The notes beneath the pieces were generated by a model that saw nothing but the letters and a program-made list of their open reading frames with translations, searched no databases and was not told the origin of the DNA. From positions 258,142 through 322,141 of the forward strand of contig QPGO01000067.1 of assembly GCA_008632985.1 (NCBI GenBank): a DNA stretch of 64,000 nt, read 5' to 3'. The position numbers were made by a program, and so were the translations under genes. Source of the DNA: Psammoneis japonica. Its lineage: Eukaryota. Shown piece after piece: positions 1-64,000 of this stretch (position 1 is its first letter; each line of letters starts with the position of its first letter).

Positions 1-229
1 CACTTGGATGAGCAGAGCTGGAGCCAGGGCAGCTGGCCTGGCAGGGCTTGGCTGACACCCAAGCTGGGCTGCTCAGCTTGGTGGCACACACTCAGTGTCA
101 CATCTCTTTGCACCTGCAGCAACCACCCTGGACCAAAAGAAGCCAGTGCAACTCTGGCCCTGGTTGCATGGTCAATTGTGTGTGTGTTCAATGGTCGAAT
201 CCCCTCTTTTTTTCTCTTTTCCTTTGACC

Positions 230-3858: not shown

Positions 3859-4247
3859 GCCAGTTCTCAATGGTGCACAAGTGGCTTGATGAACAAGGGC
3901 ACTGCAAGCACACCAAACAACCCCCACCTTTGATCACACACAGGTTCAAATGACAAAGCATGTGTTTGCTTTCAAAGCTGGTGTTGAGTGGCTGGAAATC
4001 ACGCTGGTTTGGCGACAGTTGCTGCTGCTGTTGGATGTGCTGCTTTTGATCAAAACATGGAACAAAGTGGTGCCATGGTGGGTTGAAGCTGAAATTTTGG
4101 CATGATCAAGCTCCACAAGGGTTGCAAAAAAAGCAACAAGCTGCTGCTGTTGACAGAGACAGAAATGTCAAGTGCAGTCAAGGTCATTTAGAAAAAACAT
4201 TGCTGCTTTGTGACACCCCCACAAGGGCCAGTCCAAGCAACAAAGCA

Positions 4248-42960: not shown

Positions 42961-44767
42961 ATGAGCTATCAGCCTGGTGGAGACGATGGTTTGGGTCGCT
43001 ATCGACAGGAGATGAATCAAAGGTTTGGATCCCCTGGAGAGGCGAACAAGCCGCCTCCGAGTAGGTCAAGGATGTCTGGAAATTTTTCCTTTGCCAGTTC
43101 ACGAAGACAGCAAGATAATGATGATGGTTCGAGGGCAAACAGTGGTGCTGGTGGCGCACAACGGGCGTCGCTCATGAGTAAGTTTGGTCTCCCTGGATGG
43201 GCAAAGAACGCCAAGGATGACCCCGCATTATCCGATGACGAATATTTTGACGACCATCTAGCCCCCGAGGAGAAGAAGATGGAAGAACAAGTCCAACTCG
43301 AACAAAACACAGGGGCTACCAAAGAAGGGCGGCCGTGGAGAATGAAAACAAGACTTTGGTCCAGTGGTCTCGAAAAGTCAGCCCGTAACATGTCGTCAAA
43401 TAATGGAAGGAACGAACAGAAGCAAGAGGACAACTTCGACGTTGTATCACAGTTTGATGTAGGAAGGTGGCAAGAAGTGGACAACGACACAATTTTTGAA
43501 GAAAATTTTGGCAACGTTTGGGATGATGCAACGTTCACCCCAGAGGAACACAGAGGAAAGAAATACACGTACAACTCGGGCAAAGCCACTGCGCCGCCGC
43601 CGAAAAAATACACGTATAGTGCTGGAAAGGTCTCTTCGGGTCCGAATAGGGAAAGTCTGCCGGCCGCGATCACTGAAGAGGAAGAGGAGGAGGAAGAGGA
43701 ACCAACCTTCAATAGGAGAAGAGAGCTTGGAAGAAGGCGTGGAGGTAGGAAGTCAGAACACTCGCTTCAAGTATCTGTGGGAGATACGACAGTACCTACA
43801 TCCAACTTGACTTCAATGTCTTTTGGAGATACGACGGCGCCTACATCCAACTTGACTGCAAACGGGAAGAAAGCACCAAACGAAGTTAAGAGGCGAGCAC
43901 GTGAGGGCGCCGAGCAACCCTCGAGGTCTCGCACACCGCACCAAAGGAGATACAGTAACCCAATGCCTCCTGTAGAAGAAGACGACGGGGTTGGACAGGC
44001 AGAGATGTCTATGAGGCGTTCGAGAAGTAGGGATCCGTACGATGACCAAGAACGCAAGCGAGGACAAAGGCGTGGAGAGGAAGAAGTAGGAGCTACGCCG
44101 CGGAAGTCAGAAAAGCGATCCAAAAAGAAACGAGGGGACGGTGACTCAGTGGCCTCGTCTCGTCGTAGTGCGTCTTCCCCGCATCGGAGATCAAGCAAAA
44201 TGAATGAATTGATAGAGGAACATGAAAATGAAAGAGCTTCAAGGACAAAAAAGAAATCATCGCGACGTAAGAGCTCAAGCGGAGATCATGATGCCGAAGT
44301 CAAGAAGCGTTCCAGCAAGACCAAATCAAGGGAGGAGAAGGAGTCCCCGAGAGACAAAAGCTCAAGAAAGCGACACAGTACTAGGACGAAAACTAGCGAT
44401 GACCATGAAAAATCACGCAGGCACCGGTCCACAGACGTTGATGTGCAGGAAGAAGAAGGTGAAGAGTCAAGAAGAGATCGTCGAAAAGATCCCCGTCGAA
44501 AGCAGAGACGCATCACGTCGACGCCGTTCCTCTGACGCGGACGTTCGCGAAGAGAAGAAATCATCAAGAAGATCGCCCTCCAAACCTAGAGAGGAGCGAA
44601 AATCCAAAAGGAAGTCATCACGGGCGGAGTCCAGTGACATCCACGAGGAGGAAGTAGCCCAGCCCACAAGTCAAAGAAAGAAAAGTCCAAATCAGGGGAG
44701 AAAAAGAAAAAGAAAAGAGCGTGAAAAGCGGATTGTCAAAGAAAAAATCGGACAAGCCAGACGGTGA
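42961..44767 (+). CDS. Low-complexity Arg/Ser/Lys/Glu-rich protein, apparent frameshifts near 44490-44500, 3' end uncertain
   Basis: 524 aa ORF whose composition continues in another frame (SRDASRRRRSSD); internal repeats KKYTY and GDTTxPTSNLT, each twice. Confidence 0.7.
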
Positions 44768-45335
44768 GAGGAAGCACGTAAGTTCCCGCATGAAACGACG
44801 GGCCGCCTAGCGTAGCTAAAATGCGCAATGCAGTCCTAATATCCATTTTTCGGCCGCACGCTGGAGAAATAGCATTGCGTCCCTATTTAAAATTGCTAGC
44901 TATGGAGAACTCGCTGGACCAAACACGTCCGGGTACAAACATGGCGCAACCGTAGGTTATGTTGCTACACAAATGCATACCATGTTGTCATTGTCAATAG
45001 ATTGAAACTGTTCTTAGTATGGTATGGATGTTCGGATTTACTTGGTCTAGTTGATTTGTCTCCGTAACGACCATCGGCTTGTCATTTATTTCTACTACTT
45101 GCAGCCACTTGAAACTGAGCCTTGAGGCTGCTACGTCACGCAAAGGTCATAAGGCGGTCGCGGTCTACTATGGTACACCGAAAAGCAGGCTAAGCAAGGG
45201 CTCATACTGTAGAGTTGTTATTTTGTACTTTGATGTATTATATACCAGTATAGAAGATCTAGCAACAGCAACTCATCCTTTCACGTAACCATGCCTTACC
45301 TTTGTTTCGTCTGCATGGTTGGACGACTTGCTGCT

Positions 45336-45986
45336 TTATAAAGTGGAGATGTACATTCTCTCTAGCTGTAGTAACTTGTTCCTATCGAAAAGGAAAGTTG
45401 GGTGGAGGAGGCATGGGCGATATGCCTTGGGTGATGAAAGTTGGGAGTAACTGGGAAGTTCCGAAAGAGCAATGGAGGCCAAGTCCAACAATTTGTTGTC
45501 GTGGCGACTCTCTGGCGCACTGAACTTCTCCAGAACAACCTCGCCGTGTGTCTCGTGTGAGATGCTGAATTGCGGCTCTTCCATGGACACGGCCGGTCTT
45601 ACAGCACTGATCGCGTCATCGGAATTCGTTGAAACGGGCAATGTTCTTTTGGCGACGAGCGAAGGACTTGTATTGGCCGATGACGCCATTTTGGGGGAAG
45701 GTATGGAGATTGGGCAAAGCGGAGGAGCCGGGTTTCTTGAAGATGGGAGGAGAGGCGCTGGCGGAAGCGGTCTTTGAATCAATAACAGACCGGTTCCTCC
45801 AACACTAGATTGATTCGCGCTTTGCAATGCTGACGTTTTGAAGTTCGCCCATTCGTCATTGGCCTCGTACTTCTCCAATGGAGTACTCGTTGTTCCGAGG
45901 CTTATAGGGTTGGGTGTTTCAGCCTCGTCTCCAATATGAGAAGCATTATATGCAGCGGTGTGGGGTTGGCTTTGTGTCGGTGTCAT
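45336..45986 (-). CDS. Hypothetical Ser/Pro-rich protein
   Basis: 216 aa ATG-initiated ORF; no recognised motif. Confidence 0.4.
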   Translation of the reverse strand: MTPTQSQPHTAAYNASHIGDEAETPNPISLGTTSTPLEKYEANDEWANFKTSALQSANQSSVGGTGLLLIQRPLPPAPLLPSSRNPAPPLCPISIPSPKMASSANTSPSLVAKRTLPVSTNSDDAISAVRPAVSMEEPQFSISHETHGEVVLEKFSAPESRHDNKLLDLASIALSELPSYSQLSSPKAYRPCLLHPTFLFDRNKLLQLERMYISTL

Positions 45987-46542
45987 GTCATTCTCTGTGA
46001 TGCAAGATTATGCAGAAGACCATGATGTGCAGTTTCCGAATCGAATTTGTGACACTTTCTGTGAAAAAGTGAGAGGCTGTCCCGATAGTTCCGTTGATCG
46101 ATGAGAACTGCGACTTTTATTAGGGCTCTTGGATTTGTTTATAGGCAATTAGGGACGTGGCCTTTTGTATTGCCTCTTCCGTTCGTTGAAAGTGCAAAAG
46201 AGGCTCTAACCTCTCAAAAAGTGAGCGGCATCAGTGACGTTTACATCGCCGTCGAGTCTTGCTTCCTGCACTTTCGCGCATTCGCATAGGCTCTACGGAG
46301 ATTCTACCAAAGATTCGAATCAGTCGTGGTAACGTCAGAAACACGTCATCCACGTGTGGGGTAGATTTTCAGTCGAATGATTCGTCAACGTACCCACCCC
46401 ACCGACGGAATTCTTTTTATGTTTTTTGTTTTTTGCAACGTTGGGTTGTGTTGTGGATCCTAAGAGTACGCTTTTGCATTCTTAGAAGCAAGCTTAGGAG
46501 TACCGGTATTCTTCATCGCACTCTCATTGTCATTCTCACATT

Positions 46543-48311
46543 ATGAATATTTCAAGAGACAGCAGCAGCAGTGACGATCTTCAGGAGCCATTTCTCGATG
46601 AAAATCACGTTGTCGAAAGCAACGAGAATAGTTCAATTGAAAAAGATATCATCATTCCTCGGTGGCTCCTCTGTCGAAACCGTTCCGACCAACCACCTGT
46701 AAAAATCAATCATAATGTCGCTCTGAATTTGCTGGTTTGTGTTGCATACGGTATCGCCGATTCCCTCTGGACTGGAACAGTCATTGCAGCCTACCTGAAA
46801 CGTCTAGGTCAAGGTCGAAACTCACCCGTGGGCGATGTTGAGGCGGCAAGCGGCTTGGCAAATCTCATTAGTGCCTTGCCGGTTGGATACTTGGCTGACA
46901 AGATTGGCCGAGCAAAAGTGATTCGCGCCGGTGGAGTTCTAATTGCAGTGACTGCAGTCGTTCATATTTGGCTATTGGACTGGATCGGAGTCAACCCTTC
47001 AAACATGTTCTCAGCATTATTTCTGCAAAATCAACAGGACAAGGAGTTTTGGTATATGGGCGCCGTCATGTCAATGTGGGGGATAGCTGGTGGAGTCGTA
47101 AACGGACCAGCGCAGGCATTGTATGCAGACTCTACACCGGCTGGACAACGATCAATCTATTATACCTATCTATTTGGGGCTTACTTGTTATCATCGTGTG
47201 TTGGGCCTCTCGTTTCCATTGTACTGTTTCAAACCCTTGGAGATGATTGGAATTTGTATGACTTGAGAATTGTGCTTTATGTTGGTTTGGGATTGGAAAT
47301 GGTGAATGCAGTTCTGATGATGTTCTTTGACGACCGAAAAGCTCTGGAGGAGGGCTGCGATTCAGAGGATGCAACTGGTGAAGTAGCAACGGAAAACGGA
47401 GATGACGAAGTACCCTTAGCATCAGGGCTGGATGATGGACACGATCAGTTGGTTGACACCGGAGACCACTGCGAAAGCATCATAAAACGACGCAAATACA
47501 TTCCGTACATTATCTTTTGTCAGGCTCTCATCTTTTCCATCGGTTCCGGAATGACCGTAAAGTTCTTCCCGTTGTTTTTTAAGGACGAAGTCAAAATGTC
47601 TCCGACGCAAGTTCAGGTAATTTACGTGCTGGTGCCGCTCTCCATGGTCGCCTTGTCTGGAGTAGGTCAAAAGCTGGCAAAGACGGGCTTTGGTCGAGTT
47701 CAATCGGCAATAGTTCTGAATACCTGTGGCGTGTGTTGTCTCTTTTCCATGGTTCTCTTCAAAAGTTTCTTGGACTCGAATCCCTTTATCCTGGTACCAA
47801 TCTATATCATACGAACGGCTCTCATGAATTGGTAAGCGGGACGCACAGTGAAAGCCCTAGCTCTTTGTCTCAACGCCTGGTTGTCTCATCTTTTTGTCTG
47901 CAATGCGTTTTGCATTCTAGTACATATCCCCTTCAGGAATCTATATTGATGGACTTTGTTCCCAAGAATGAACGTGCGCGGTGGAAGTCATTGGATTCGA
48001 TCGCCGTGTTTGGATGGTGTGGCAGCGCTGCGTTTGGCGGATGGTTGTCAGATCGGTATGACTATACATACACGTTCTTTATCACTGCACTGATTCAAAG
48101 CGCGGGTATATTGTGCTTTGCCCTTCTCTTGCCATTGGTACCACGACGCGAGGACGATTTGAGCTCAAATAATAATGTCAGCAACACAAGCAGGCCAGCG
48201 ACAAGTGCTCAGCAGCAATCTCTCAATGAAAATGGAGACACCCACAGTGAGATGTCAAACCAGGTCGATCTCGAGAAGCCTCTCTTAGGTCCAGCGGAAA
48301 GTCTGGAATAG
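46543..48311 (+). CDS. MFS transporter, 1 intron
   Basis: PVGYLADKIGRAKVI motif A, multiple TM segments; intron about 47832-47919 joins ALMNC|TYPLQESILMD; GGWLSDRY. Confidence 0.9.
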
Positions 48312-48637
48312 AAAATACTTTCTTGACAAACCCTTACCGTAGGCCCTCTAGAGTAATTCTTTTTCTAACTCTAGAATAGAGAGGGCCCTACGGAGAGTAC
48401 AGTAGAGTAGCGCCTGTAGCTAAATAGCAAGAGTGCATGGCCGTACAGTACAACGAAAAAGGGAAGAAAAGAGGGGAGTTCGTTCCTCAAGTGTCCACAA
48501 AATCCGCGCGAGCGTTGGGCTATCGCCAAAACGGCGTCATCATCGCTCCTTTCCTTTTTCGTTGCTTCTGATCTTGCACATTAAACACACTGTTGATCAC
48601 AGGAGAGATCAAAACACTCTTCCAACATACATCAGCC

Positions 48638-49973
48638 ATGGCGCTCATTCTGGTTGGCACAGCCGCGTATGCTGCTTATAAAGCAATGAGCGAGAATGAG
48701 TCTCCGTTGGATCCCGAGATTCCTCCTCTCGACGAATTGAAATCAATTTCCTTCCTTCCCCTTGAACTGGCACTTGGCTTGATGGAAGCTCCCATTCATA
48801 CTATTTCCTTCTTTGAAGGAAATTACAAAGAAGTGGCAAAGACTTTGGAACAACGCATCAAGGATATACTGTATGTGAATCCGTGGTTGGGAGGGTGGCT
48901 TTGCAATGATACTAGTAGAAAAGAACTCAAACTCTACTACGATGAAACGGGTGTCAACAAGGCACCAGGGACGTTTCAAGTCTTGAGCCAGGGCAGATTG
49001 CACTTTCCAAGCATGTTCCCTATATGGAATACGACGAAATCTGAAAGATTCTAGGACCAAAGTACCTCATAATCATGATTTGCTGGGAAAGAATGAGGCC
49101 TTGTGGCAAATCAGTGTCATTCCGGATTCACAGAAACCTAATGACCGCTTTGCCATTGTGGCCAGCATGTCGCACATAGCAGGTGATGCCTCTCTATTTT
49201 ACAAATTATTCGACATGCTAGCTCCTCACGTGGAAGTTGTCGCTCTCAATCCTGAACGTCGTCAAGTCGTTACCGACCAAGTTGAAGAACTAATGGGAGC
49301 TTCTGAAATGACATACGTATCCAAGGCAATTTCCAATCCGCTCTGGGACTATACACAAAAAGATGCAGATCCAGTTCAGAGTAGTATCTTTTATGTTTCC
49401 AATGAATGGCTGGAACGACAACGCAGTTTACATGTAAATGGAGAGCAACCCGTATCGGACCACGCATTGCTCGCTTCGACGTTTTTCATCGTTGCCAAAC
49501 CGACGGTCGGATTCAAGATGCATCAGCTTCGTGAACGACTTGAAGATGTGCAAGAGACTGATGCCGGTAATTATCAAGTTTCCATTCCATATACGGAGTA
49601 CGACTATTCCTCACCAGAATTGATTCAGCAATCCGAAAAGGTGTTACGGCGGTGTGGCGAGTACAATCAAGCTCCATTGCCAAGTGCCAGTTGGAACTCA
49701 ACCTATTCAGTAATGACCGATTGGTCTTCCTTTTACACCGAGCCAATTAATCTTGGTGATGGCCTGCAGGAAGTTCTGCACCTGCCTTTGTACAGCACTG
49801 AGGAACTCAAAGTTATTCCGAGCAAAATGTCACTCTTTTGCGTTTTTGCGGCATCTCAACAGCATGACGATTCTCACAAACGACGAATCGGTGTTTCCAT
49901 TGTAGCTCCTCGATCCATTATTGTTGCGATTGAAGAGAGCGGGATTGTGGATGAACCCATTGCAAGGCGTTAG
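48638..49973 (+). CDS. CoA-dependent acyltransferase-like protein (HxxxD), two apparent frameshifts
   Basis: ILYVNPWLGG and MSHIAGDAS motifs; ORFs 48593-49054 and 49080-49973 join if single bases are restored near 48984 and 49038. Confidence 0.65.
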
Positions 49974-50978
49974 AAGATAGGTGTGCGCGCTCATGTCAGA
50001 CGACATGGAAGCTAGCTAGCTGACAAGATCTGTTTGAAAACGAGCCTTTCCATCTGTGAAAGAAGATAGTTCTACAGGCTTAATTTTACTGCTCTATGAT
50101 GCCTTAATGTGTTTCAGAAGCTCATCCACAGGAACTGCAGGAAAGCTGCCTGCTGTTCGAGAAATCAGAGCGGGCGCGATTCCACGCTGTTTCACAGCTG
50201 CACCTTTGGCATCGAGAGGCCCCTCTTGGACCCAAAAGAGTCTGGACCATCAACTTCTTTTCTTCTTGACAAGCTGCTCTCTTTTGCTAGAGCCCTGCGG
50301 TGCTTTGCGCAAGTTGTGTGTCGGTTTGAAAGCTCACATGGCATTTATCAGTGTGTTGAGCTGTGTGCTGTGTGGGCAATGTGAGCCGCATTTTTGTCAC
50401 CATGGCCTTGTCGTTTTTCGCATCGAAAATTTAGTGAGGCTCATTTTTATTTTACGCATGATTTGTAGAGCACGTGTGCACACTTGCATCAAATCTGTCA
50501 AGTTTGATGTGCTTCATTGAATGAAGTGTGAAACACTCTAAGCTTGAGGTTGTCAGGTGCGGCACACAACATGAACACTCCCCCGGGGGAGAGATGACGA
50601 CTCTTCCTGGGAGGGGTGCGAACCTTTCACGGGGGCTCCTGGAGGGCTGCAAACTTTCTTGCGGTGGCTCCTCTGGCTGCCCTGGGGGGGGGATGCAAAT
50701 TTTCTCAAAGGGTTCCCCACTTGGCTCAACATTTCTTACAACTCCTGATGCTCTGTGGTGCCCACTCCCGGCTTGGGAGGTCTGTAATTGTGGTGCCCAA
50801 CTTGCATCTTGAGGGCATGCCAATTTTCTCATGGGCATTCCTGGGGAGGTGTGGCAAAAATGACATGTTGTGTTGGAGTGCCAAGATCATGGGTGCTGGT
50901 GCAAGGAATCCGGGTCCACCAAAGAAATGACACTTTGGCTCCCAGCGTGGTGAGTTGGCAACAGCTCTCTTGGGATTT

Positions 50979-53900
50979 TCCTCTGTTGCCAATTTCTCAC
51001 CTCTACTTTCATCTCACTCTTTGGATCAAGTCATTTGGTGTGCTGCATCTCCCTGTTTGTCCATGTCAGCATCTCTGGGCATCTGCCACTGTTGTCATTT
51101 GAGTTGGAAGTTTGTGTTGACAACTTCCAGGCAACCCACAGCCACCACATCAGCCAAGGCAAGTGCAGCAAGTGTCGCAAGAAGCCTGGTGGGGTCCCCT
51201 TTTAGTGGCACTGGCTTGCCAGCTCAGTGCTCACTCTAAAGAGTGAGAGGTGGGAGACACTTGTTGATGACAAAGGCCCAGGGAGCATTTGACCAGAAGG
51301 GGCAAGAAGCCTCAGAAAAGGAGCCAGATGGCTCCACAACTGGGTGTGTTTTGCACCAGCATCAGCCAAAAGCATGAGACTCTAAGTGAGAAGGCAAAGG
51401 CCATGGCAGCCTTGGCATTCCTGGCATGGAAAAGAAACAAGATGGTCTTCAAAAAAAGGGCAAATGGTTTGTGAAGGCAAACTGACAAGAGCACAGCTGG
51501 ACAAGGATGAGTCAGCCAGTCAACAGAATTGTCAACAACAAGTGCTGATGACAGCTGTTGTTGATGCTGTAGAAGAGCATGACATGATGAGCACCAGTGT
51601 GCCAAGTGCATTCACTCAAAAGTTGATGTCGGAGCCTGAGCAAGGCAAAGACCAGATCATGATGAAGATTTCTGGAGCATGGGTCGACATGTTGGCAAAC
51701 ATTGACCCCAACCCACACAGACCATCATTTGTTGTCATGGAAAGGGAAAAAAGAGTCCCCTGTGATTGAGCCACTGGAGAAGTGTGCAGTGCATTTGTTG
51801 CAGCTCCACTGTGGTGCAAGACATTTTGCAAAGACTTGGAGAAGATCAAGCTCAAGTTTGGCCCATGATGCAGTCCATGCACTGCCAACCAAGAAGCAGT
51901 CAACGGCAAACAGCACAAGCCATGCCAACCTGAAAACAAATGACAAACTCACAAGCTGGCTCAACACAAAGCATGGAAGCCATGGAGAAGCTGTGGCGAC
52001 ACAAGGAAAGAAAAGCATGGCTGCCATGAAGTGACCAAATTTCTGGGTGCAAAATGAAGGGGTCCATCTGCTTTTCTTTTTGCTGAACATCAATTTGTGT
52101 TTGTGCTGGCAGCTGTTTCAGTGTGAAGCAACCTTGACAACACATGTCTGAGATTTCAAATTTTCCATGACTTGTGGAGCAAAATGCAATGACAACAGCG
52201 GCCATGAATGCATTGCTCCACCAGTGGCCACAAACTCACCATGAGACTCTGATGTGTGTTGACAGCTTGCATTCACATCACATGTGTGTGACTTTTTGAG
52301 TTTCAAAGTTCTTTGACAATGGAGAAAACACCTGAAACAACCACTTTTCTGCCTGTCACTTTTGACTGCATGAGCCCAGAATGAGCCAACCACACTCACA
52401 TGCAGGCATGTTTCTGTTCTCCCACAAATGAGTTCATGACATGCAACATGCTGTTGATTGTCACATCTCTTGAAGGTGATCCCATCAAGAAAGTGGCATT
52501 TGCAGAGTTGCCATGGTGAGGTGGTGTTGTCTGTGGCTTTCCTGTGGCAAATTTGCACCAATTCTGAGCCATGCTTGTTGAGTTGGCAAGGATGCAGCAT
52601 TTGCCAGTGCACATGACAGGCCCACCATTCTCCTCAGTGGCAGTGCCTGCAGCAAAAAAATCATCATTTGGCAAAAAAAACTCAGGCAAAGAAGACCTTC
52701 AAGTGACAAAGTGGCACATGGATGATGCACCATTTGCAGTGCACCCCAATTTCAAGAGCCACACAAGGAAAGCTGTGACAATGGGCAGTTTGGCAGTGCA
52801 CGCCATGTTGAAGTGACAGAAGAAGCTCAACAGGCCACCCAGAGCAGCACAATTGCTGAACTCACAAGAGTCAATGACACAGCCAGTCATGATTTTGTGA
52901 ACAAAGTTGTTTGTAGAGCACTGGGGGGGGGGGCAGTCAACAAGAACATCCTGCATCAGGACAACAAGAGCGCTGGGCCATTGGAAGCCAATGGGCACTG
53001 GAGTGCTGGGAAGCAATCCAGAGCACTTGCACTTGGCATTTTTTGTGTCAACCAAGTTGAGAAGGGCAACCTCAGAGTTGACACATGGAATGGACAGAAG
53101 GACAGGTTTGTGAAAGAAGTGGAGACATCTGTCAAGATGAGCACGCAAAGCATTTGTGGATTTGAGTTGATGTCCAAGCCAATCCTCCAACAAAACACTT
53201 TAGATTCCTGTCAGCTGACAATGGGTGCAAGACAAGGAGAGTGCAAAGAGGGTCACATCAAGATCCCTTCTTCAGTGCCAACCAAAGTGGCATGAGCTGT
53301 GTGGATGAGAAGGTTTGCACTGACAGAAGACATGCTCAAATGCACCAAACTGTGAATGGGAGAAATCAATGAAGATGTGTGTCCGCTGCTGTGCCAATGT
53401 TTTCCATTCATGACAATGTGTCAAATGAGGTTGAAGTGTGCACCATTGCACATGAACATTTGACCAAGGAACATTGGCAGATTGTTGGTTATCAAGCCTT
53501 AAGACAAGGAAAGGCACATTGTTGCAATTGGACAATGGTGCTGAACAAACATGTGTGACAGGCTCATTGCTTGGTCAAGGGGGGTGGCAACTTGCAGCTG
53601 GCCTCAGACAAACAAGACATTGACCACTTGAGCAAATGGCCATCTGCCAGCTGTCCTGCTCATGGTGTGGATTCACCCGGGATGTGTGGTCTCCTTGTGA
53701 AGCCCAGTGCTGGTCATCCTGAGGACAGTGTGAGTCATTGTCAACTCACTCAGGATGCACGTGGTGTGGTCTGTGATGCTGAGAAGCTGGCATTGTTTTT
53801 CAACCATGACGTCAATGCTCCAAGCCCTTCTTTGAGATGGACTTGTCACAACATGATGCTCTTTGAATTGGTTCCCTTGAAGGTTGACTGTTGGGTCAAG

Positions 53901-54490
53901 GGTCAAGGAGCTGTTGCTCTGTTGGAAAGGATTTGCAGTGCCAGCACACTGGGCAATTTGTGGAGAGTGTGCACGGAACAGCCAGCCAGCTCAATGACAT
54001 GATTGACTTCTTTCCAATGAGGGGTGACATGCTGGCCTGCACTGTTGCAATCTGGAAGGCTTCAGTGCTGAGGCAATGACAGACCACACTGGTGCTGATC
54101 TCCCCCCATGTCATCACTCCCAATTTTTAGAAACACCAATGACATGTGAGCAACAGGAATGCATTGGAGCATCCAGGTCATGGCGCTGCACAGAACCTGG
54201 GCCCATTGAAGCAAAGATTCTTTGTTCTTTGACAAGGTGAGTTGGTGTCTGTTGCTTGAGGACTGTCCTCTGCTGCCAATCTCTCACCTCTGCTTTTGTC
54301 TCACTCTTTGCAGTGAGTTGTTTGGTGAGAAAATCAATTTGTCTGTTGTCATCACCATGTGCCTGCCGCTGTTGCTGTTTGAGCTGGAAACTTGTGCTGA
54401 CAACTTCTGGGCAACCCACAGCCAACACAGCAGCCAAGGCAAGTGTGGAGAGCATCGCAGGATGAAGCCTGGCAGGGCTCCCTTTTGGTG
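50979..54490. repeat. Two diverged direct copies of about 230 bp (about 50979-51210 and 54267-54490)
   Basis: Shared ctcacctct, tctcactctttg, gacaacttc, ggcaacccacagcca and cagccaaggcaagtg segments in the same order. Confidence 0.85.
51400..53100 (+). mobile_element. Degenerate Ty1/copia (CoDi-like) RT and RNase H
   Basis: VLMTAVVDAVEEHDMMSTSVPSAFTQ, IMMKISGAWVDML, LWCKTFCKDLE, KWHMDDAPFAVHPNFKSHT, SSTIAEL, ILHQDNKSA, SAGKQSRAL. Confidence 0.9.
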
Positions 54491-55019
54491 ACGTCAACTT
54501 GCCTGGTGCTCAAAAAGTTGAGGTTTGCAGTGGTTCCTGATGCCTCGCCTGTGCAAACTTCTCGCGTCTGAGTCTGGGGGTGAGCACAAACTTTCTCAAA
54601 ATGCAGCACAAGTGCAGCATGCATTGTTTGTCAAGTGAAAGGAATTGTGCATGTTCACAATCACATGTTGTTGTGCACATTAATTGCACCACAATTGTGG
54701 ATGCACGCAAAGGACAGATCAATCACACAAATGTGATTGATGTTGAAAATTGCAGGTGCAATTGAATGATGATGATGACACACAAGAGATGTCAATGTTG
54801 ATTGCATCTGGACAACATGTTGTCACAATCTAATTCTCCACAAGGCCTTGAGTCCACAGAAGCAGTGCAAAAGCTTTGGGCCATTGAGAACTCCTTTGGA
54901 GAAACTTCAAATCTCAGAACAAAATCTAATCCCACAATTTTCCACTTGTGTTGTGATTTGTTCTACTTTCATTTGCACCATTTCTTTGAGCACAGTGAAG
55001 AAAACAAAAACACAAAAAT

Positions 55020-55750
55020 GAAGCTTTCACCTCACAGTGCAGTTGACAAATCTTCCATCAAGCAGGAGAAGATGGTTCCTGTGCCATTGGAGTTGATTTC
55101 TGAGCTGAAGATGCTCAAACTGAGTCAGTGCCTCAAGACGGAGCAGGGCTTTCACCCCAAGGACAAGCAAAGAGAGTTGCATCTGCATGGTCAATGTCAA
55201 GCACTGCAACAAACAAGGAGTACGACATGTCACCAAAGTTTTGGTTGGACAGAACATTCACAAGCAAGCTGGTGAGTTCCGGCTCAAGCATGTGTTGTTG
55301 CAGGGAGATTTTGTTCAAGTTTTTGAGAACAAGGTGACAAACACAGATGACGAAGAAGCCAAAGGAGCCTTCAAAAAATGCCTGCATTGTCTCTCAAGCC
55401 ATGTCTTCCTCAAGAATGCACTTCAGAACCAGAAACAACATCTGCGTCATAATCTCAAGAAACCAGAGTCAATGAAGATTCAAGAAATTGCCACGTGGAC
55501 TCAGGAGGTCATGTGGACTTGAAGTTCTGTCCCCCCTTTGAAGATGACCAACAGCTGGAAGAAGATGAGCTCAAGGATGTTGTGTGCAATCATGCACCTT
55601 GCAAATGGTGGCGTCAGTCAACTGCACAAGGTTTCAAAACTTTGGATCAAAACCTTCAACAAGTTGGTTGAGTTTTTGGAACGTCTGGAGGTTGCAGAGG
55701 ACATCTTTGCCACCATTCATGTCAAGGGCAATGCCAACAGCAAGCCTGAT
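55020..55750 (+). mobile_element. Degenerate gag-like ORF of an LTR retrotransposon (probably gypsy)
   Basis: LLQGDFVQVFEN, CLHCLSSHVFLKNALQNQKQHLRHNLKKPESMKI and LVEFLERLEVAE resemble diatom gypsy gag sequences. Confidence 0.55.
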
Positions 55751-56699
55751 TCCAAAATCAAAAGTGGGCTTCAATGTGGTCCCAAAATGGTCACCTGCAA
55801 GGCACCAATGTTTGCAACATGTTTCCGTGCTTGACCAGAGTGATGGTTGTAAAAAATTCCACATGTCTGCCCAATTTTCCTGCCAATCTTCTTGGTGCAT
55901 GGACATTGATTCTTGTCACAGACAAGTTGTTGGTTTGTGGATCATTTGATCAATTGTTCTCATTTTGAGCTGCCTGTTGTCCATTTTGTGTGCACATTGT
56001 TAAACTTGTCAAGTTTGCATGCATTTCATCCCTTCTCTTTCCAATTGTCAGCTGGTGCCCTTCTGTCTTGCTCTGTTTGTGCCACATCTCTCCTTTTTTC
56101 CACTGCACACACCACAAGCCACATGCCGGCCCAAACTCTGCCAAAGACAATGCTCTCCAATGACCTTTTCAAAGGCATCCCCAGTGCTCTTCCTTCTTTC
56201 ATTGTGGCCTTGACAATGCATCTTCCTTGCTCCCCCCATTGCTCTCTGAGTGACAACTGTGCCTCATTCTCATTGGATGCATCGTTGCCTTCCAACCAAT
56301 CCCTTGGTTCAAGCACCACAGGATTGTTGTCCCTGTCTCTTGATGATGGCAATCCATCCTCCCTCTTTCCTGATGGCAGCAATCATGAGCATCAACCTCC
56401 CACTCATGGTGACCCCTCCTCCGCTGAATCGCTGTTGGAATTTTCCTTGACAACGCCTCTGCCAATTCTCATGCTGTGCCACAGCCTGACAAACTCAGTG
56501 CTGGGGTGTCTTGCCCCAGTGCCAAGTGGTGAGCACATTTTTATGATGACATTCTTCTCCTTGAGGAGGAGTTTGATGTGTTCTCAGCACAACAATCTGT
56601 GTCATCCTCTTCCCCCCCTGACAATGACAAGGACAACAAAGGACTGCACTGCTTTGATGCACTTGAGTTGGAGGTGATGGAAGAAGCTCAACTGTTGCA

Positions 56700-59540
56700 A
56701 CCTCCCTGCATTTGAGACACCAATGCCACCAAAAGCTTTGTCCTGTGGAGGAAGAGTTGGTTGTGATGATGAAAAAGCATTGTCTTTCCCACGGTTTGCA
56801 CAAGGCTTTTCTTTCCTGGGCTAAATGTGCCAAGGAAAGTGACTGTGAGTGCAAGTCTCTCTCCTGCTCTGCAGCCTTGCAACGCATGAAAGCCAAGCAT
56901 TTTGATTTTGTTGGACCAGAGCTCATTTGCTCCACAGTGAACATGGGTCCTGATTTTTCCTTTCTGCACTCTTGTGTGAAAAGGGCATTTTGTGATCCCC
57001 AGGTTGTCCAGTCTTGTCAGTGAATGCACAATGAGAAGCGCTGCCCCTGTTGCTGCTCTCTCAACACAGGCAACTGGTGGAAGCAAGTGGAGCATGATCT
57101 CAAATCTTCCCTTGCTCAACTCGGCAATGGCTGCCCATCTGGGTCACATCATGTTTGCCCGGTTGTGCTTTTTGATGATTCTGCCCTTTGTGACAACATT
57201 GGTCATTTGCAAGCACAACCTGTTTTTTTTGACATTGGGAAATTTTAACAATCTCAAATCTTCCCTTGCTCAACTGGCAATGGCTGCCCATCTGGGTCAC
57301 ATCATGTTTGCCCGGTTGTGCTTTTTGATGATTCTGCCCTTTGTGACAACATTGGTCATTTGCAAGCACAACCTGTTTTTTTTGACATTGGGAAATTTTA
57401 ACAATGAGTGTCATCACAGCCACTCCCTTTGGTCAATGTTGGAAATGGTGCTGCTGCACCCAAAGACAAGCAATGAGCACACCGCCAACCATCAGTCAAA
57501 GCTCAGACAGGAGACGCACATCAAGCTTTGTCACAGCACTCTGTGCAAGACATTCACTGAGTTGCTTCAACTGTCAAAGCAAAAGACTTGTTTCCCAATT
57601 GTCCTGCCATTTCTTGGCTTGGTTCACCTCCACTTTTGATTGTGCATGACAATTGGCAATGCAAAAGGCCATGATGACATGGCTTGTCACAGCAACTCCC
57701 ACTCCAGTGACATTTTTCAGATGAACAGGGATTGTGACATTCCCCAGCATTTTGGCAATTGTCCCTTGTTTGCTTGCAATTTAGTCAAACAAGAGCACAT
57801 CCAGGGCACAGCAGAGGCTGCCATTGTGGCAGTGGAGGAAAAGCATCATGGCAAGGCAACTGCTGCTCGTGAGAATGGGCTCAAGGATGTTTCCCAGCAC
57901 TTGGCTCGTCCCGTCTTTTGGGATGTTCCTCACAGCAGAGGAAAGCACAGCATTTTTGGCATGCTTCCCTGGGAACTGTTGCATGCCTTGCACCTTGGTC
58001 TTTGCAAGCATCTTCTTCATGCATTCTTCAACTTGTGTCAAGTCCCAGAAAACATGTTGTCATGGTGCCACAACTGTCATGTTGACTGGGAAGCCACAAC
58101 GGATGAACAACCATCCATTGTCTTCAAGGAGCTCCCCAAGCTTTTTGACAAAGCTGAGTTTGAGAGATGCTTCAGAGTTGTGGCACATGCCTCCAAACAA
58201 CAAAGCAATTGAAAGATGCCAAGAACTCCCTTCAAGAACAGAGTGACAGACCAGACTCATCTTTCTGGCCAAGAGCATCCAGGTTTGCTGCTGGCGACAC
58301 TTGCTGCAATGAAAGGCATGCTTTCAAATGGAGATGACAGCCTTGAGCCCCCAGAGAGTCACTTTGCCCACCTGATGTTTGTGTCCTTGGGATTGGATGC
58401 AGCACTTTCCATGTCTCAAAACAAGGAAAGCTTTCTTGAGCCACTTCAGAACTGCCTTGTCAAGCATCTCCAACTGTTTCAATTTGTTGCCGGCCCATTC
58501 AGAGAGTGCTGCTCATGGTCCAGACTCCACATGTCCAAGCTCCATGGCCTTCTTCACTTTCTTTTTTTGTGCATCAGTGTGGCAACACCAACAATTTTTT
58601 TGGTGGATTCTGTGAAGCTCTTCTCAAGATGCTTCGCAAGCAACCCACCAAAAACACAAGTCGTTGGCAGGCCAGGCCAGACCTTGATGTGATGAATCGC
58701 CATCATGAGGATCTTGTGGCAAGGGAATCAGAGAAACATTTGCTCAATGCAGGTTGGCTGCATGAACAAGAGGACATGGCTCCTTCCATTGCTTCATCCA
58801 ATTGCACATGCACGGACCCCACAACAGGATTCAAACCTCACAAATCTGTGATGACGGTCACCCGTGTTGCAATTTTGGGTCAAGTCAATGGATCATGGTC
58901 TGTAAAATTTGGCAGCAAGCAGCCAGAGATGCTGTCCCATCTGTTTGTTCCAGGTGATTGTGGCAATGAATGGGTGGCCGCATTGCTGGATCATGTGGAT
59001 GATCAATGCAAAGCTTTCCCCATTGGCCTTGTCAATTTTCATTTTGGATGTGACACTCCAAGCTCTGCCAATGACAAGCATGACATCCTGAGATGTCACC
59101 CTGACTTTCACTCCCATCCAGGGAACAAAGGAGTTGGCATGACTGGGCCATGGTTAACTGGGACAACATTGAAACAAGCTGTTCCGTTGCTGCAGGTGTG
59201 TTGTTGTGGGCAACCTTTGAAAGTGAAGCAACCAGCCACAGATTGACAGTTTGTGCCATCCAATCCCTTCGAAGCTTCAAACCATCAAAAGATTCTTTGC
59301 TCACCTTTTTTGTTGGTGATGAAATGGAGTCCGATGTCCAAGTTGTTGATGCCACTGACATTTTGCCTGCTGCCTTTGTCGTCCCATCAACGAGGTCCCC
59401 ACAAGACCACTTTCCCAACAATTTGGAGGACACCACCCACTTTGTTGTGATTCCACCAAGGATTGGCTGGTGCGAAATGACCACGTCATTGACAGAGGAA
59501 TGTTTGGACACTGAACACTCAGATGAGTGTTGGTGAATGC
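56700..59540 (+). mobile_element. Degenerate Plavaka/CACTA-like transposase
   Basis: PVFLTLGNF, IGNAKGHD, PWELLHALHLG, MPRTPF, SKLHGLLHF, GNTNNFFGGFCEALLK..KQP, RCHPDF..WHDWAMVNW in the expected order. Confidence 0.65.
57097..57405. repeat. Near-perfect 154 bp tandem duplication
   Basis: atctcaaatcttcccttgctcaac starts at 57097 and 57251; copies differ by one base indel. Confidence 0.95.
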
Positions 59541-62249
59541 TTGAAACAAACAACTGAACATTTGTTTCTGTCAAATTTTAACCAACAAGCCATCATGGTT
59601 CATTGATTGTGTTGGCAGATTCCAATGACAGAGATCCCATGGACAACAATGATTCGCTGCTGTCTGTGGGGGGCTCTGTTGACAGCAAGTCACACTCAGA
59701 AAACATTTCTCCACAATCAATGTTCGTCTTTGGCGAGTTGATTAAAGACAGGTTGAGAGGTGTCTTTTGACTTGGAGAAGCACCGTTGTGCTGTTCTCTG
59801 TTGTCATCTTCAAAAGACTGTTTCTCCTTTGTTTCCAATGGCAGGTCCTCTTCTGCTGAAATGGCATCCTTGGTGTGCACATCCGAGGATTCCATTTTGT
59901 TGACCAGAACGTCTGCCTTCAACCCTGCTGATGAGGATGGGGACACAACCAAACACTTGTTTGCCGTGGTGTCACACAAAGTCTGCAGCAACGGGGTTGC
60001 ATTCTTCCCCCAAAAAGCATTGTGGCTCGGGTGTGGCATGCATCCTGGGCAGTTTGCTTTTAGCTCCAATGTGATGGGCTGAACCAACTCCTGTTTTCCA
60101 ATGCTTTTTTCCAAGGAAATGCCAAGCAACAACACATTTGACAGTTTGCAGCATTGCAAAAGTGCTTTTGTGTGTCCGTTCCATGCAACCTGAACAATGT
60201 CCCTGTGTTGTTTCACACCAAAGGTCACTTTGGGTGTTGTGCACTTTCTTCCAGTCTGTTGGTTGCACCTGACTTTGGTGTTTCCAACTCCACTGCACAG
60301 TGGGAATGGTGAAACGTCAGCCAGCACAACACACACCCCTGCTCTTGGCTTGGTCGAGCATGCGCACTTTGTTGTTGGTTCTTTCCTTGTACGAATCAAG
60401 TGTGTGTCGAGGTTGCAATGGTGTCACAATGCTTTGTGAAATGGGCAATGTCCTGGGCAGCACACTTCTGCTTGGATTTTGCCAATGGGGCCTTGGCAAG
60501 GCAATGATTGCACAAATGTGAGCATTCTTGAGAAACACCCTCATTGGCTGCATTGCTGCTTTTGGGTGCAACTGGCACATCTTCCATGTTTTGCAAGCTG
60601 TCAATCAGATCATCCTTGTGGTGCTGGAAGATGTGTGTGAGGAGCCACTTTACAGTGATCAACTGTGTGAGTGCCTCCTGGACTCAACTGTCCATGCAGT
60701 GGGTCACAGTCAAGCCATCCTTCTTGGCACAAAAATCATCAATTTTTTGGAGGCTCTGATTGCGGTCTTTCGTTGGTGTTCGAGTGCAACAGAGACATGC
60801 AACGGCAGCCAGAGGCAAGAAAAACTCCACCCACAGAGACAGGACCAATCTCCCAAAGTGACAGGTGGTGCAGAGATGGGCTGTGTTGCAACAGCATGCG
60901 ATGGCTCTGTTTTCCTTGACAGTCAGTTCAGTTCTGGCACGAGGGGCATTGAACAAGTCAACAGGAGTGCGCTGACCTGCAAAAGACAAATGAACCATAA
61001 AGCCATTGTGAGTGACAGAGAGCAGAGTCAAAAAAGAGGGGAAAAGTGTTTGCTCACCTGGACAACCGTGATTGGAACCACAGACTCTGTGATGTTTCTC
61101 AAAAATGCTGTCCAGGACTGTGGGAAACAAGGCACTGCAGGCCTTGGGCAGCAGAGTGTGTTCAATTTGTGAATGGAGGTGGGAAGCAAAGGTGTTTTGT
61201 TCTTAATTCATTGAGTTGAGGGCCGATGGGCCAACCTTCTCCCAAAAGTTTTGACGAACTTCAGGTTTGTTGAATTCATTGTTTGACCGGTCCTTGTCCC
61301 ATCAAGGCAAAGGGACATTCAGAGCCCAACACTGGCACCCAGGAGTGAGTGCCAATTCATGGTGTCACTGATCTCTTGTTTGGATGGAAAACCTGGAGAG
61401 AGAAGAGAACAACCCACCTTCAAGTTGCCCACCTTCTTTGCAAGGTTGGTCTCCAAATTTGTCATTTCACTGGCATGAAGGGTCTGTTTCTGAGCTTTCT
61501 GGAGAGAGGATGTGGTCTTGTTGGTTGTGGCAATTTTTGCACTGCAGGTGTGGTGCTTCTCCTGCAGTTTCTTGCACATCTTTTTGTTTTTGGTTTTGCA
61601 CAGGCTGAGCATCCTCCAGTGAAACAAAAGCCACATCCTGCAATCTTTGCCAGACATTTGGTTTGGGTTGATGCCATGAATGGCATGATGCTTGGAGACT
61701 TTGAGCAGATCGGCAGTCTTGCAGGAAGGGATTTTGTCACACTGCTGGAGAAATTCAACATCCTCTTTTCAGTCAGAGGGGAACAGTTCTCAGACATCTT
61801 TGGAGGAGTTGACTTCTTCATTGGTGGAGGCTAGATTGGCAGCGGCAGCTGTGGGGTCATTGGCTGGTGGAGAGCAGCTGCAGACAGAGAGCCTTGACAA
61901 CACCAAGAGCTGACCCTGGAGCCTTGCCTTGGTGGTCCAGTGGAAGCAGCTTGGCCTGGTGTTTAAGCTGAGCAAGCAGCACCTCCACCATGACCTCCAC
62001 TGTGGCCACCGGCACCACAGGTGCGACTGGCATTGTTGTGGTCAGCAACTGGTGAGTTGGTCTTCTTCCTTTTTCTTGGCGGCGTGGTCAACAAGAACAC
62101 CAAATGGAAAGAAAACAGGATGAGTGACATCCCAGAGAAGGCAAAAATGTGAAATCTGACAGCAAATGCAAGACGCAGTTCTCATCACCAGCATTGGACA
62201 AGCACAAAATGATTGACAAGATGGCGCATGTGGACAGCACTCCTTCTTC

Positions 62250-63880
62250 TTCATGTCAATGTGATGTGATCATGGGACACAACTTGATGAGCAATCTTGG
62301 GATCGTGCTTGATTTTGCAAATGAAGAAATCAAATGGGAAGATGCAGCTGTGCCAATGAAGGATGCACATGCACCATTTGATGCTGAGGGTGGTCTTCAA
62401 GCTGATTGCCAATCACATGGAGGAATCTCACACCATGAAAAGTCTCAATGACAGGGTCAACAGGATCCTTGATGCTGACTGTCACACTGCTGACCTCAAC
62501 AATGTGACTGCTGCAACAGCAACTCACCTTGCTCCAGAGGAGTGGAAGCAATTGAACTTTCTTCTAAAAAGATTCAAAAATCTTTTTGACAGTTCCTCAG
62601 GTGCATGGGCTGGAAAACTGGTCAATCTTGCATTGAAGTCAGGGGCAACCCCACATCATGCAGTGCCATTTCCTGTTCCACAAGCCTTGGAGGCAACTGC
62701 TTGAAAGGAAGTCAAAAGCCTCTGCAAGACAGGAATCTCAAGAAAAACAATCCACTTAGAATGGGCAGCTCCAACCTTTGTTCAACCTGAGAAAAATGTC
62801 GGAGTTCAATTTTTGTCCAACTTTTGCAAGCTGAGTCAGAGGTCAATGTGCACTCCGCACCCCCCACCTGACATTCAAGACATGCCGCAGAAGCTCAAGG
62901 GCTTCATGCATGCAACGTCATTTGATTTGAACATGGGATGTCATCACATTAAGTTGACACCATGCGCACATTGGTTGTGCACCATTGTGATGCCGTGGGG
63001 CAAATGTGAGCACTGCAGACTGCCTGTGGGAATTTGTGGAGCTCCAGACATTTTTCAAGAGCACATGAGTGACCTCATGGCAGGCTTAGAATTTGTCAGG
63101 ATGCACATTGACAACATGCCATGCCTGACATGTGGTGACTTGAAGGATCATCTTAAAAAGCTCAAAACAACATTTGCGCAACTTGACAAGCTGGTTTAAA
63201 GTCAATGCCAAAAAAAACCTTTTGTGAAACCCAAAGTGGATCATCTTGGGTTTCACATTTTGCAGCAAGGCATCAAACCAATCCCCCAAAATGTGGAGGC
63301 AATTCAATCTGTCGCTGCTCCCAAAATGACATTTTTTTGGCATGATCAATTGTTGTCAAGATGTGTGGCCTCAACAATCTCATGCACTTGCTCATCTGGC
63401 CAGACTCACCTCATCCAAGGTCAAGTGGCAATGGGCAAGCATGGAACAAAAAGCCTTCAAAAATGTGAAGCAAATTGTGTCAAAAGATGTGTTTTTGGCA
63501 AACCCAAATTTTGACAAACCCTTTGAGACAAGCACAGATGCAAGCAATTCTAAATTGGGTGCCGTCACATCACAAGACAAATGACCCGTTGCCTTCTTTA
63601 GCAGAAAGCCAAATGGAGCACAGATGCGACACACCACAATGGAAAAAGAGCTGCTGTCCATCATTGAAGCTCTTCTTGAGGAGTTCTGAAATGTGCTGTT
63701 TGGTGGCCAACAATTAAAAACATTTGCAGATCATGAAAACCCTGCTCATGAGAATTTTGCTGTGGACAGAGTCATGTGTTGGCATCCAACAACAAAAGAA
63801 TGCAGTCCTGAAACAATTTGCCTCATGGGCAAGGCCAATGTCATCACAGATGCAATCAGCCAACTTGCTGTGAAACAAAT
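62250..63880 (+). mobile_element. Degenerate Ty3/gypsy pol (protease end, RT, RNase H)
   Basis: CDVIMGHNLMSNLGIVLDF, PHHAVPFPVP, DLNMGCHHI, WGKCEHCRLPVG, PDIFQ, HIDN (YIDD), HLGF, TDAS, AFFSRK, EKELLSII, ANVITDAISQL. Confidence 0.95.
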
Positions 63881-64000
63881 GTAACCCATGGAAAACCTCA
63901 GCTCTGTGAAGAATTGGCAGAAAAGACAACCCCTGAGTCCCACAACAACGTCTTTCTGTCAACACACAAAGTTCTTGACACTGAACAAAAATGGGACAAA

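Follow-up and report, generated by a model that had tools for sequence, protein, structure and literature searches.

How can a reverse transcriptase lose every tyrosine and still keep most of its other conserved residues? The question is raised by the right-hand end of a 64,000-nucleotide stretch of Psammoneis japonica DNA (contig QPGO01000067.1, positions 258,142 to 322,141), the whole of which is called the window below and in which positions are counted from the first nucleotide. The pol gene located there on the + strand comprises the reverse transcriptase (RT) and ribonuclease H (RNase H) of a dead Ty3/gypsy-type long terminal repeat (LTR) retrotransposon. Its state is very probably best explained by rewriting of the dead gene in place, through transitions specific to the dinucleotides TpA and CpG. 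At the level of the sequence it can be regarded as established which way the changes ran, that they are specific to two dinucleotides and symmetric between the strands, and that they are limited to repeat blocks.

Conserved residues of the pol gene

The conserved protein motifs of a retrotransposon give the direction of change without an ancestor in hand. The original prediction, a reading of this DNA by eye, quoted four RT motifs in which Tyr had become Cys or His, and all four are found as quoted: ATGGGATGTCATCAC at 62933 (MGCHH), GGCAAATGTGAGCAC at 62999 (GKCEH), CACATTGACAAC at 63104 (HIDN) and ATGATCAATTGTTGTCAAGAT at 63342 (MINCCQD). The gypsy consensus assumed for them is also borne out, as relatives with a normal Tyr content read DLNMGYYH, GKYEY, YIDD and NYYR at these places, with shares of 83 and 82% for the two Tyr of MGYYH, 84 and 88% for those of GKYEY, 83% for the Tyr and 94% for the Asp of YIDD, and 68 and 76% for the Tyr and 76% for the Arg of NYYR. 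Neighbouring Tyr codons were resolved differently (TGT at 62939, CAT at 62942). The CpG decay proposed within the same motifs fits as well, the Asn of HIDN being GAC GAC>GAC AAC and the Gln of NCCQD being CGA>CAA. The parts of the element and the block that contains it are as follows.

50400..64000, no strand: block stripped of TpA and CpG, at least 13.6 kb, running off the window end, with a sharp left border of about 250-500 bases (dinucleotide counts)
62107..62385, + strand: protease-like part of pol, decayed and broken by stops (tblastn segments P0003 139-221, P0002 29-91, P0013 534-607)
62414..63325, + strand: reverse transcriptase domain in one frame, without Tyr, with in-frame TGA at 62702 and TAA at 63197 (tblastn, HMMER)
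62933..62947, + strand: MGCHH, for MGYYH in relatives (TAT>TGT and TAT>CAT, columns 62939 and 62942; alignment)
62999..63013, + strand: GKCEH, for GKYEY in relatives (TAT>TGT and TAC>CAC, columns 63005 and 63011; alignment)
63104..63115, + strand: HIDN, for catalytic YIDD (columns 63104, TA>CA, and 63113, CpG>CpA spanning the codon border; alignment)
63326..63332, + strand: frameshift between the RT and RNase H frames (tblastn segments switch frame; frame translations)
63333..63878, + strand: connection and RNase H, with in-frame TGA at 63582 and 63687 and in-frame TAA at 63882 just beyond the domain (Pfam, tblastn)
63348..63362, + strand: NCCQD, for NYYRD in relatives (two TAT>TGT and CGA>CAA, columns 63351, 63354 and 63357; alignment)

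Relatives were collected by a HMMER search with 62360-63196, one TGA being read as X, against 1.84 billion representative proteins. There were 12,173 matches at E<=1e-3 and 74 at <=1e-30, the best at 1.5e-66 with 44% identity. The set of 151 proteins used below consists of P0001 and the 150 HMMER hits listed, and 137 of these proteins have at least 2% Tyr. Tyr-normal relatives were aligned to each of the two pol frames, 134 of them to the frame with protease and RT and 27 to that with RNase H, and columns with at least 10 residues were used. The nearest intact relatives are 42-58% identical in protein, at which distance silent sites are saturated, so the comparison was made at the protein level.

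At a consensus of at least 70%, none of the nine Tyr columns is kept (five Cys, four His), against 9/9 for Phe, 12/13 for Gly, 14/15 for Pro and 3/3 for Trp. Tyr differs from all other residues taken together both at this threshold (0/9 vs 107/140 kept; Fisher, p = 5.7e-6) and at a consensus of at least 50%, where the 18 Tyr columns have become His (8), Cys (6), Phe (2), Asn (1) and Ser (1) and 163/244 of the others are kept (p = 8.6e-9). The comparison with Phe, Asn and Lys codons, on which the original prediction had staked its reading, points the same way, with 15/20 of these columns kept at 70% (p = 2e-4) and 24/37 at 50% (p = 1.5e-6). Tyr could be lost altogether because every Tyr codon is TAY. 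Arg, the other residue strongly affected, is kept in 3/11 columns at 70%, the rest being three Gln, three Cys, one His and one Ser. The surviving conserved Arg codons are all AGR, which holds no CpG (3/3 AGA at 70%; 4/4 AGA or AGG at 50%). Over the 631 pol codons, Tyr makes up 0% here and 3.5% in relatives, Cys 3.3 and 1.6%, His 5.2 and 2.6%, and Arg 3.0 and 6.0%, respectively. Since 104/129 columns other than Tyr and Arg are kept at 70%, the TpA process can be called hypermutation relative to the background.

Cys or His at the motif positions might have been an inherited state of the family. The 134 Tyr-normal relatives have Tyr there, and the ten proteins that have Cys or His contain less than 1% Tyr. 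These ten, P0001 and nine of the 150 hits listed (P0010, P0058, P0061, P0067, P0074, P0113, P0138, P0142, P0144), have raised Cys and His, carry MGCCH- and GKC.H-type motifs and are 30-51% identical to this copy. Judging by these features they are decayed copies called as genes, and several families are affected.

Dinucleotide specificity was examined at the replaced columns by asking if the present codon can be derived from any codon of the consensus residue through TA>TG, TA>CA, CG>TG and CG>CA only, with the present flanking bases. At 70% consensus 28/42 replaced columns are derivable (10 TA>TG, 9 TA>CA, 8 CG>CA, 3 CG>TG), and at 50% consensus 48/99. As a control, each of the 16 rule pairs made up of an A>G change following a given base and a C>T change preceding a given base was granted the same codon freedom. 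The nine decoy sets with neither true rule explain 1-5 of the 42 and 2-10 of the 99 columns; at 70%, sets with the TpA rule alone explain 18-21 and sets with the CpG rule alone 11-13. Among the 45 nucleotide changes inferred at the 42 columns, 19 are of TA type, and A>G after A, C or G contributes almost nothing. The count of substitutions in ancestral TA or CG dinucleotides that had been proposed as a check thus gives, in this protein-anchored form, the outcome foreseen. The examples outside Tyr and Arg fared unevenly: the Pro of RKPN (63609, CCA from CTA) and the Thr of AVTSQ (63567, ACA from ATA) fit the TpA rule as claimed; the Pro of DMPQK (62885) is CCG and is unreachable by CTA>CCA. As a whole, the interpretation that TA and CG became TG or CA in a once-functional gypsy RT is supported, and neither of the two conditions under which it was to be refuted held.

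The assignment to Ty3/gypsy is based on domains, homology and gene order. Two Pfam models match 63342-63698 beyond their curated cut-offs (RT_RNaseH_2, E 2.7e-21; RT_RNaseH, E 4.8e-13). On the RT core (62705-63196) RVT_1 reaches E 0.011 only, under its curated cut-off, because the RT motifs are mutated, and tblastn with P0002 and P0003 gives 42-43% identity on the RT part. When long relatives are used as tblastn queries, protease-like, RT and RNase H parts lie contiguously at 62107-63878, and protease and RT are not separated by an integrase. A Pfam scan of six long intact relatives gave the order RT, RNase H, Integrase_H2C2 in five (P0002, P0017, P0048, P0049, P0072), with rve after Integrase_H2C2 in four of these five (rve or zf-H2C2 in all five) and a protease ahead of RT in three; the sixth, P0013, terminates in RNase H. 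Their protease/RT/RNase H/integrase order is, by its domains, that of Ty3/gypsy elements. The region matching 62107-62385 is RVP/Asp_protease_2 in relatives, and the window's own protease-like piece (62107-62385) has no Pfam match. The window ends before the expected start of the integrase, so that only the protease-like, RT and RNase H parts are visible here, and self-BLAST of the window gave no repeat pair with the region upstream of pol that could represent LTRs, the 3' end of the element lying beyond the window. With 11 in-frame stops (9 TGA, 2 TAA), one frameshift, HIDN replacing YIDD and no Tyr in 631 codons, the pol copy is by its sequence a member of Ty3/gypsy by descent, and it is dead, not active.

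Depleted blocks in the window

The pol gene lies in one of three blocks, seen in 2-kb bins at 1-5100, about 19250-23300 and about 50400-64000, in which TpA is near zero, CpG is scarce and TpG and CpA stand at almost twice the expected level. The observed/expected ratios in 50501-64000 are 0.05 for TA, 0.16 for CG, 1.79 for TG and 1.80 for CA at 47% G+C, against 0.55-0.59, 0.96-0.98 and 1.14-1.20 (TG/CA) in the host DNA of the window at 48-49% G+C; across the depleted blocks TA ranges from 0.03 to 0.09. The block 50400-64000 holds 51 TA, 125 CG, 1538 TG and 1495 CA. At the relatives' mean observed/expected ratios, 50401-64000 would have about 750 TA and about 675 CG, from which the TA loss is estimated at about 93%, and the TpA process is at least as complete as the CpG decay. 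Near equilibrium, TA loss would run about 60 times faster than the reverse transitions (3033 vs 51) and CpG loss about 24 times faster (3033 vs 125). The blocks give way to host DNA sharply, within 250-500 bases, and the non-ORF (open reading frame) host DNA beside the blocks has 11-19 TA per 250 bases. In this one window, TpA mutation is confined to foreign or selfish DNA in three sharp-bordered blocks, and the rest is normal.

The two processes are separable. In 1-2250, TpA is at 0.09 with CpG at 0.61, a loss of TpA that CpG does not match; this part has 59% G+C and unequal TG (2.11) and CA (1.34), and its two overlapping frames of about 410 codons have no Pfam match. The converse state is seen in the DNA of relatives, which was analysed for the best 80 of 569 metagenome relatives and for all 6 viral-collection relatives, at 35-58% protein identity; the ranking favours intact copies and is uninformative on how common mutated copies are. 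TA is at 0.59-1.18 in 86/86 of these loci, so that the living state of the family is TA-normal. Eight metagenome loci (L001, L013, L016, L026, L034, L040, L045, L046) have CpG at 0.12-0.44 with TpA at 0.59-0.92; CpG loss can therefore occur alone, and these loci represent ordinary CpG decay without the TpA process, presumably in other hosts.

The order of the two products along the DNA bears on how the changes arose. In 50501-64000 there are 1529 TG and 1485 CA, and a runs test gives z = +1.25, with z = +0.74 in 19251-23250; strand-coordinated clusters were thus not detected by this test in the two cleanest blocks. The value is -4.0 in 2251-5000, which holds tandem duplications, and about -2.3 in host DNA. 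Equal TG and CA in random order fit independent hits on either strand of double-stranded DNA, and the random order argues against processive single-strand deamination. Three in-window duplicate pairs agree with this picture: 13/28 adjacent double mismatches between the copies are CA vs TG, every other type occurring at most twice. This is the mark to be expected when the two copies resolve a palindromic dinucleotide independently of each other.

A public DNA run of the same organism (run X1) was compared as contigs with 44001-64000 at single-copy depth, and 40 of the 153 differences were listed. Among those listed, TA or CG opposes TG or CA in 20/30 inside the block (15 CG-type, 5 TA-type) and in 6/10 in the 6.4 kb of host DNA at 44001-50400. 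Expressed per remaining TA and CG site, about 10% differ in the block (5/~51 TA, 15/~125 CG) and about 1% in the host (3/258 TA, 3/334 CG), with less than 0.1% at other sites; all of these are small numbers. The summed contig depth of the same run at >=90% likeness is about 1966 at 54673-55339 and about 1180 at 62677-63343, vs about 58 in flanking single-copy DNA and a near single-copy value at 59342-60008. Given this unevenness, the block is taken to be a patchwork of repeat families that differ greatly in abundance.

With TA a part of both TAA and TAG, TGA is nearly the sole stop in the depleted 13.7 kb (386 TGA vs 39 TAA and TAG), and long open frames have no meaning there; 107 stop-free frames of at least 70 codons overlap on both strands. 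Outside the pol pieces, none of these 107 frames of 50300-64000 reached a curated Pfam cut-off, and the 60 frames in 1-5100 and 19200-23350 gave 0 matches at E<=0.001. Given that no other domains were found in the depleted blocks, only the pol gene allows the former sequence to be read from protein conservation in this window.

Some further features of the blocks may be recorded. The surviving TpA in 50401-64000 are non-random in context, 43/51 being TTAN or NTAA, and TTAA accounts for 14/51 (27%) vs 3% of host TpA; these contexts may be either resistant to the mutator or new TpA derived from the abundant TCA and TGA. The segments 50949-51207 and 54236-54490 form a 74% identical repeat pair 3.3 kb apart, in which 9/22 adjacent double mismatches are CA/TG, and which may represent the LTRs of a short element or two solo copies. 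Tandem duplications are located at 3337-3858 (262 bases, 94%), 4529-4885 (174 bases, 90%) and 57097-57405 (153 bases, 99%). The copies of the last differ by a one-base gap alone, and it is either young relative to the mutator or without target sites left.

The non-depleted DNA carries long, mostly unbroken ORFs with MFS, HPP, S41/Tricorn-like protease and Caps_synth glycosyltransferase domains. The nearest Atlas cluster of the HPP protein (score 0.97) is eukaryotic, with Bacillariophyta as its commonest phylum, and the best named homologue of the Caps_synth glycosyltransferase is from the diatom Seminavis robusta (52% identity). At the level of lineage, these neighbouring genes point to a diatom as host. 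An unbroken ORF of 1598 codons at 27178-31974 (+ strand) has Tricorn C1, PDZ and peptidase S41 C-terminal domains, its first approximately 1100 residues being without a domain. Adjacent ORFs at 12795-15180 (- strand) match BTRD1, a polyglycine-hydrolase-like structural repeat (1.4e-29), and a beta-lactamase fold (1.1e-30). This pairing is known from fungal polyglycine hydrolases and occurs here in a diatom-like genome, and the two ORFs may be one gene split by an intron.

Mechanism and competing explanations

In the proposed course of events, the element stopped functioning, and two dinucleotide-specific transition processes then rewrote pol and the surrounding repeat DNA in place. One would convert TpA to TpG or CpA (A:T to G:C) and the other CpG to TpG or CpA (G:C to A:T), both proceeding nearly to completion while other substitutions remained few. 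A Tyr codon would become Cys (TGY) when the A of the sense strand changed and His (CAY) when the T changed, and CGN Arg would become Gln, Cys, His or a TGA stop. Behind the CpG changes there is probably 5-methylcytosine deamination in transposon DNA that was methylated, and the TpA changes would be the work of a repeat-targeted mutator like that of the chlorarachniophyte Bigelowiella natans (Mettrop et al., bioRxiv 10.64898/2026.01.13.699255), acting site by site on double-stranded chromosomal DNA. That such a dedicated, targeted TpA mutator exists here is somewhat favoured by the data, and its being an adenine deaminase in particular is a possibility to be held with some doubt.

Several points weigh against this explanation. 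At 70% consensus, 14/42 replaced columns need some other change, namely eight other transitions and six changes with a transversion, and the codon test chooses the most favourable ancestral codon, so that the comparison with decoys is fair and the absolute share flattering. The ancestor is known at conserved columns only, a consequence of the distance to the nearest intact relatives. Run X1 may be the assembly's own sample, and 40 of its 153 differences were listed. At >=90% likeness its contigs sum over the RT to about 20 times the single-copy depth; such a depth does not translate into a number of copies, but duplication of a copy already mutated may have taken place. The claim that the changes came after insertion is thus well supported as a general deduction and unproven for this particular copy, as the DNA run hints at several similar copies. 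Finally, CpG is lost here, and the word "CpG" has no occurrence in the main text of the B. natans preprint, so the two systems may differ.

If the block were simply very old neutral DNA, eroded at TA and CG by a spectrum acting everywhere, with genes preserved by selection, a mild lack of TA in the host parts (0.55-0.59) and TA/CG-type differences from X1 in host DNA (6/10 of those listed) would be expected, and both are found. The block borders are sharp, however, with 11-19 TA kept in every 250 bases of the adjoining non-ORF host DNA and a host CpG ratio of about 1.0. Moreover, the non-Tyr, non-Arg columns are largely kept despite the loss of about 93% of TA, and residual TA and CG differ from X1 at about 10% of block sites vs about 1% of host sites (differences listed, small numbers), which together make untargeted old age very unlikely. 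About as improbable is editing before integration, by an ADAR-like A-to-I activity on the RNA genome or an APOBEC-like activity on the cDNA, followed by insertion of the ruined copy. Edited retroelements are reportedly known in animals, and ADAR prefers U before the edited A, as noted in the Discussion of the preprint (bioRxiv 10.64898/2026.01.13.699255). Editing of one template strand would yield one outcome; TG and CA are here nearly equal and randomly ordered (z +1.25), and Tyr became Cys and His about equally often. The same composition is also shared by two further blocks and by 13.6 kb in which the several repeat families differ widely in depth; in-place duplicates differ by CA/TG pairs, and residual sites are still variable between genomes. 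Fungal repeat-induced point mutation (RIP) was considered and rejected: it needs C:G>T:A at CpA or another CpN, with TpA rising and G+C falling, and here TpA is 0.05, CpA 1.8 and G+C 47%, like the host.

Two further explanations are scarcely credible. A living family that avoids TA and CG, for example to escape a host defence, could account for the ten of 151 recovered proteins that are nearly Tyr-free ORFs and for the depth, which suggests several similar copies. It is opposed by HIDN for YIDD, the lack of Tyr in 631 codons, the 11 in-frame stops and the frameshift, and an RVT_1 match below the Pfam cut-off; open frames are no sign of life, since TA-free DNA opens them in all six frames (386 TGA vs 39 TAA and TAG). 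The other is a sequencing or base-calling artefact at modified bases, since methylation of motifs can be a source of systematic miscalls when some long-read assemblies are made. The contigs of run X1 contain 83% of sampled 31-mers of 54001-64000, and 194 contigs are at least 99% alike, with the reservation that the run may be the assembly's own sample. Miscalls on the two strands would not leave TG or CA cleanly fixed. Stops, a frameshift and other substitutions are present in the element as well, and Tyr-free relatives are present in other public data.

The remaining alternative leaves the targeted process as it is and changes only the base attacked. Thymine that is modified or oxidised within TpA, as in bases of the 5-hydroxymethyl- or formyl-uracil kind, would mispair with G and give T>C with no adenine deamination. 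Modified thymines exist in some protists, and if a palindromic dinucleotide carried a mark that is symmetric and can be maintained, this would be a parallel to the CpG methylation that decays in the same blocks. As TpA is its own reverse complement, A>G and T>C on opposite strands yield identical data, and the base attacked, A or T, cannot be told from sequence alone. Thus, of the proposed A>G at TpA, the target and the two strand-symmetric outcomes stand; the choice of A over T does not. The sequence being neutral, the one consideration on the other side is that the only experimental work puts forward an ADAT2-like adenine deaminase, likewise unproven, and thymine attack is rated as rather unlikely.

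Implications and comparison with known systems

Rewriting of dead elements at TpA and CpG could have consequences for how genomes are read. Old invaders would converge on a Tyr-free, TG/CA-rich sequence with TGA as sole stop, which homology searches and gene callers misread: relics lose all Tyr, fail domain models and yield long spurious open frames. Transposon censuses undercount such relics and protein databases gain false genes, as 10/151 of the recovered proteins appear to be. For screening, Tyr to Cys or His, loss of CGN Arg with AGR kept, and CA/TG double mismatches between copies could serve as markers. The usual bias of mutation is from G:C to A:T, and a mutator restricted to selfish DNA that changes A:T to G:C at a single dinucleotide runs counter to it. 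Such a mutator was first measured in 2026, in one alga; probably it is no peculiarity of that species, and it can be searched for in lineages with good genetics. Rather tentatively, diatoms, like the distantly related chlorarachniophyte Bigelowiella, may erase TpA from transposons and invaders site by site on both strands, beside the decay of methylated CpG. TpA editing would then be an old and widespread genome defence of the SAR (stramenopile, alveolate and rhizarian) supergroup, possibly through a heritable mark at the palindromic dinucleotide, and would account for the "missing" transposon families of some diatom genomes.

Among known systems, RIP resembles the present case in being a transition hypermutation of chromosomal repeat and transposon DNA that prefers a dinucleotide, stops sharply at regional limits and destroys coding capacity. 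It differs in that RIP changes C to T mostly at CpA, creating TpA and lowering G+C, whereas here TpA is destroyed, CpA and TpG are created and G+C is 47-48%. The APOBEC3 and ADAR systems that hypermutate animal retroelements share deamination-type transitions that wreck reading frames, and ADAR favours U before the edited A. They act on single-stranded RNA or cDNA before integration and leave asymmetric, clustered changes, in contrast to the symmetric, unclustered changes seen here, which extend to non-coding neighbours.

Decay of methylated CpG is matched by the CpG ratio of 0.16, by CGN Arg turning into Gln, Cys, His or TGA with AGR kept, and by CpG loss alone in the eight metagenome relatives. 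The 11 conserved Arg (7 to Q/C/H, 1 to S, 3 kept, all AGA) have the pattern that such decay would leave. This decay covers 11/30 targeted changes at conserved columns, or about one third, and cannot touch TpA. In diatoms, CpG methylation of transposons is DNMT5a-dependent, and RID-related DNMT4 genes of unknown function occur in many species (Hoguin et al., 2023, PMC9998398). GyDi elements, which are Ty3/gypsy, are reported from Thalassiosira and none from Phaeodactylum tricornutum (Maumus et al., 2009, PMC2806351). The present element is like GyDi in its Ty3/gypsy pol order in a diatom-like host, a likeness of arrangement, and beside the reported absence from P. tricornutum it may be noted that relics as mutated as this copy would be hard to detect by BLAST. 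Mutation-accumulation lines of P. tricornutum gave CG, CC and TG as mutable contexts, and the word "transposable" is unused in the available text of that study (PMC6604790).

The closest parallel is B. natans, as described in the main text of the preprint (Mettrop et al., bioRxiv 10.64898/2026.01.13.699255). In mutation-accumulation lines, two integrated viral regions mutated at about 6e-7 per site per generation, about 1000-fold above the genome, and 230/231 mutations in the viral inserts were A>G or T>C, all on TpA according to the authors; hypermutation was seen in some lines only. In the same genome, 324 TpA-poor coding sequences are enriched in reverse transcriptase and DDE domains, and 124 clusters of 1-kb windows are TpA-poor and CpA+TpG-rich. 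The authors propose an ADAT2-like adenine deaminase, without a test in that text. TpA alone is hit there, and here TpA likewise gives TpG or CpA according to strand; in both cases mutation is limited to foreign DNA within an otherwise normal genome, and clusters of low TpA with high CpA+TpG are the long-term signature. The differences are those of a rhizarian (chlorarachniophyte) from a diatom-like, stramenopile host, of nucleocytoplasmic large DNA virus (NCLDV) and virophage inserts from LTR-retrotransposon and repeat DNA, and of a measured rate from a historical signature. In addition, TA is saturated here at an observed/expected ratio of 0.03-0.09, vs a Rho of 0.45 for the B. natans NCLDV region, and TpA makes up 4.0% of dinucleotides in the host DNA (258/6400) vs 6.0% in B. 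natans, so that the host is taken to be a diatom and not B. natans. In the literature search, TpA>TpG/CpA hypermutation was found described only in this preprint, whose supplements might bear on CpG and retrotransposons, and no description for diatoms was found. The process thus has a precedent in B. natans, and what would be new here is the diatom-like host, the retrotransposon DNA, the saturation and the combination with CpG decay.

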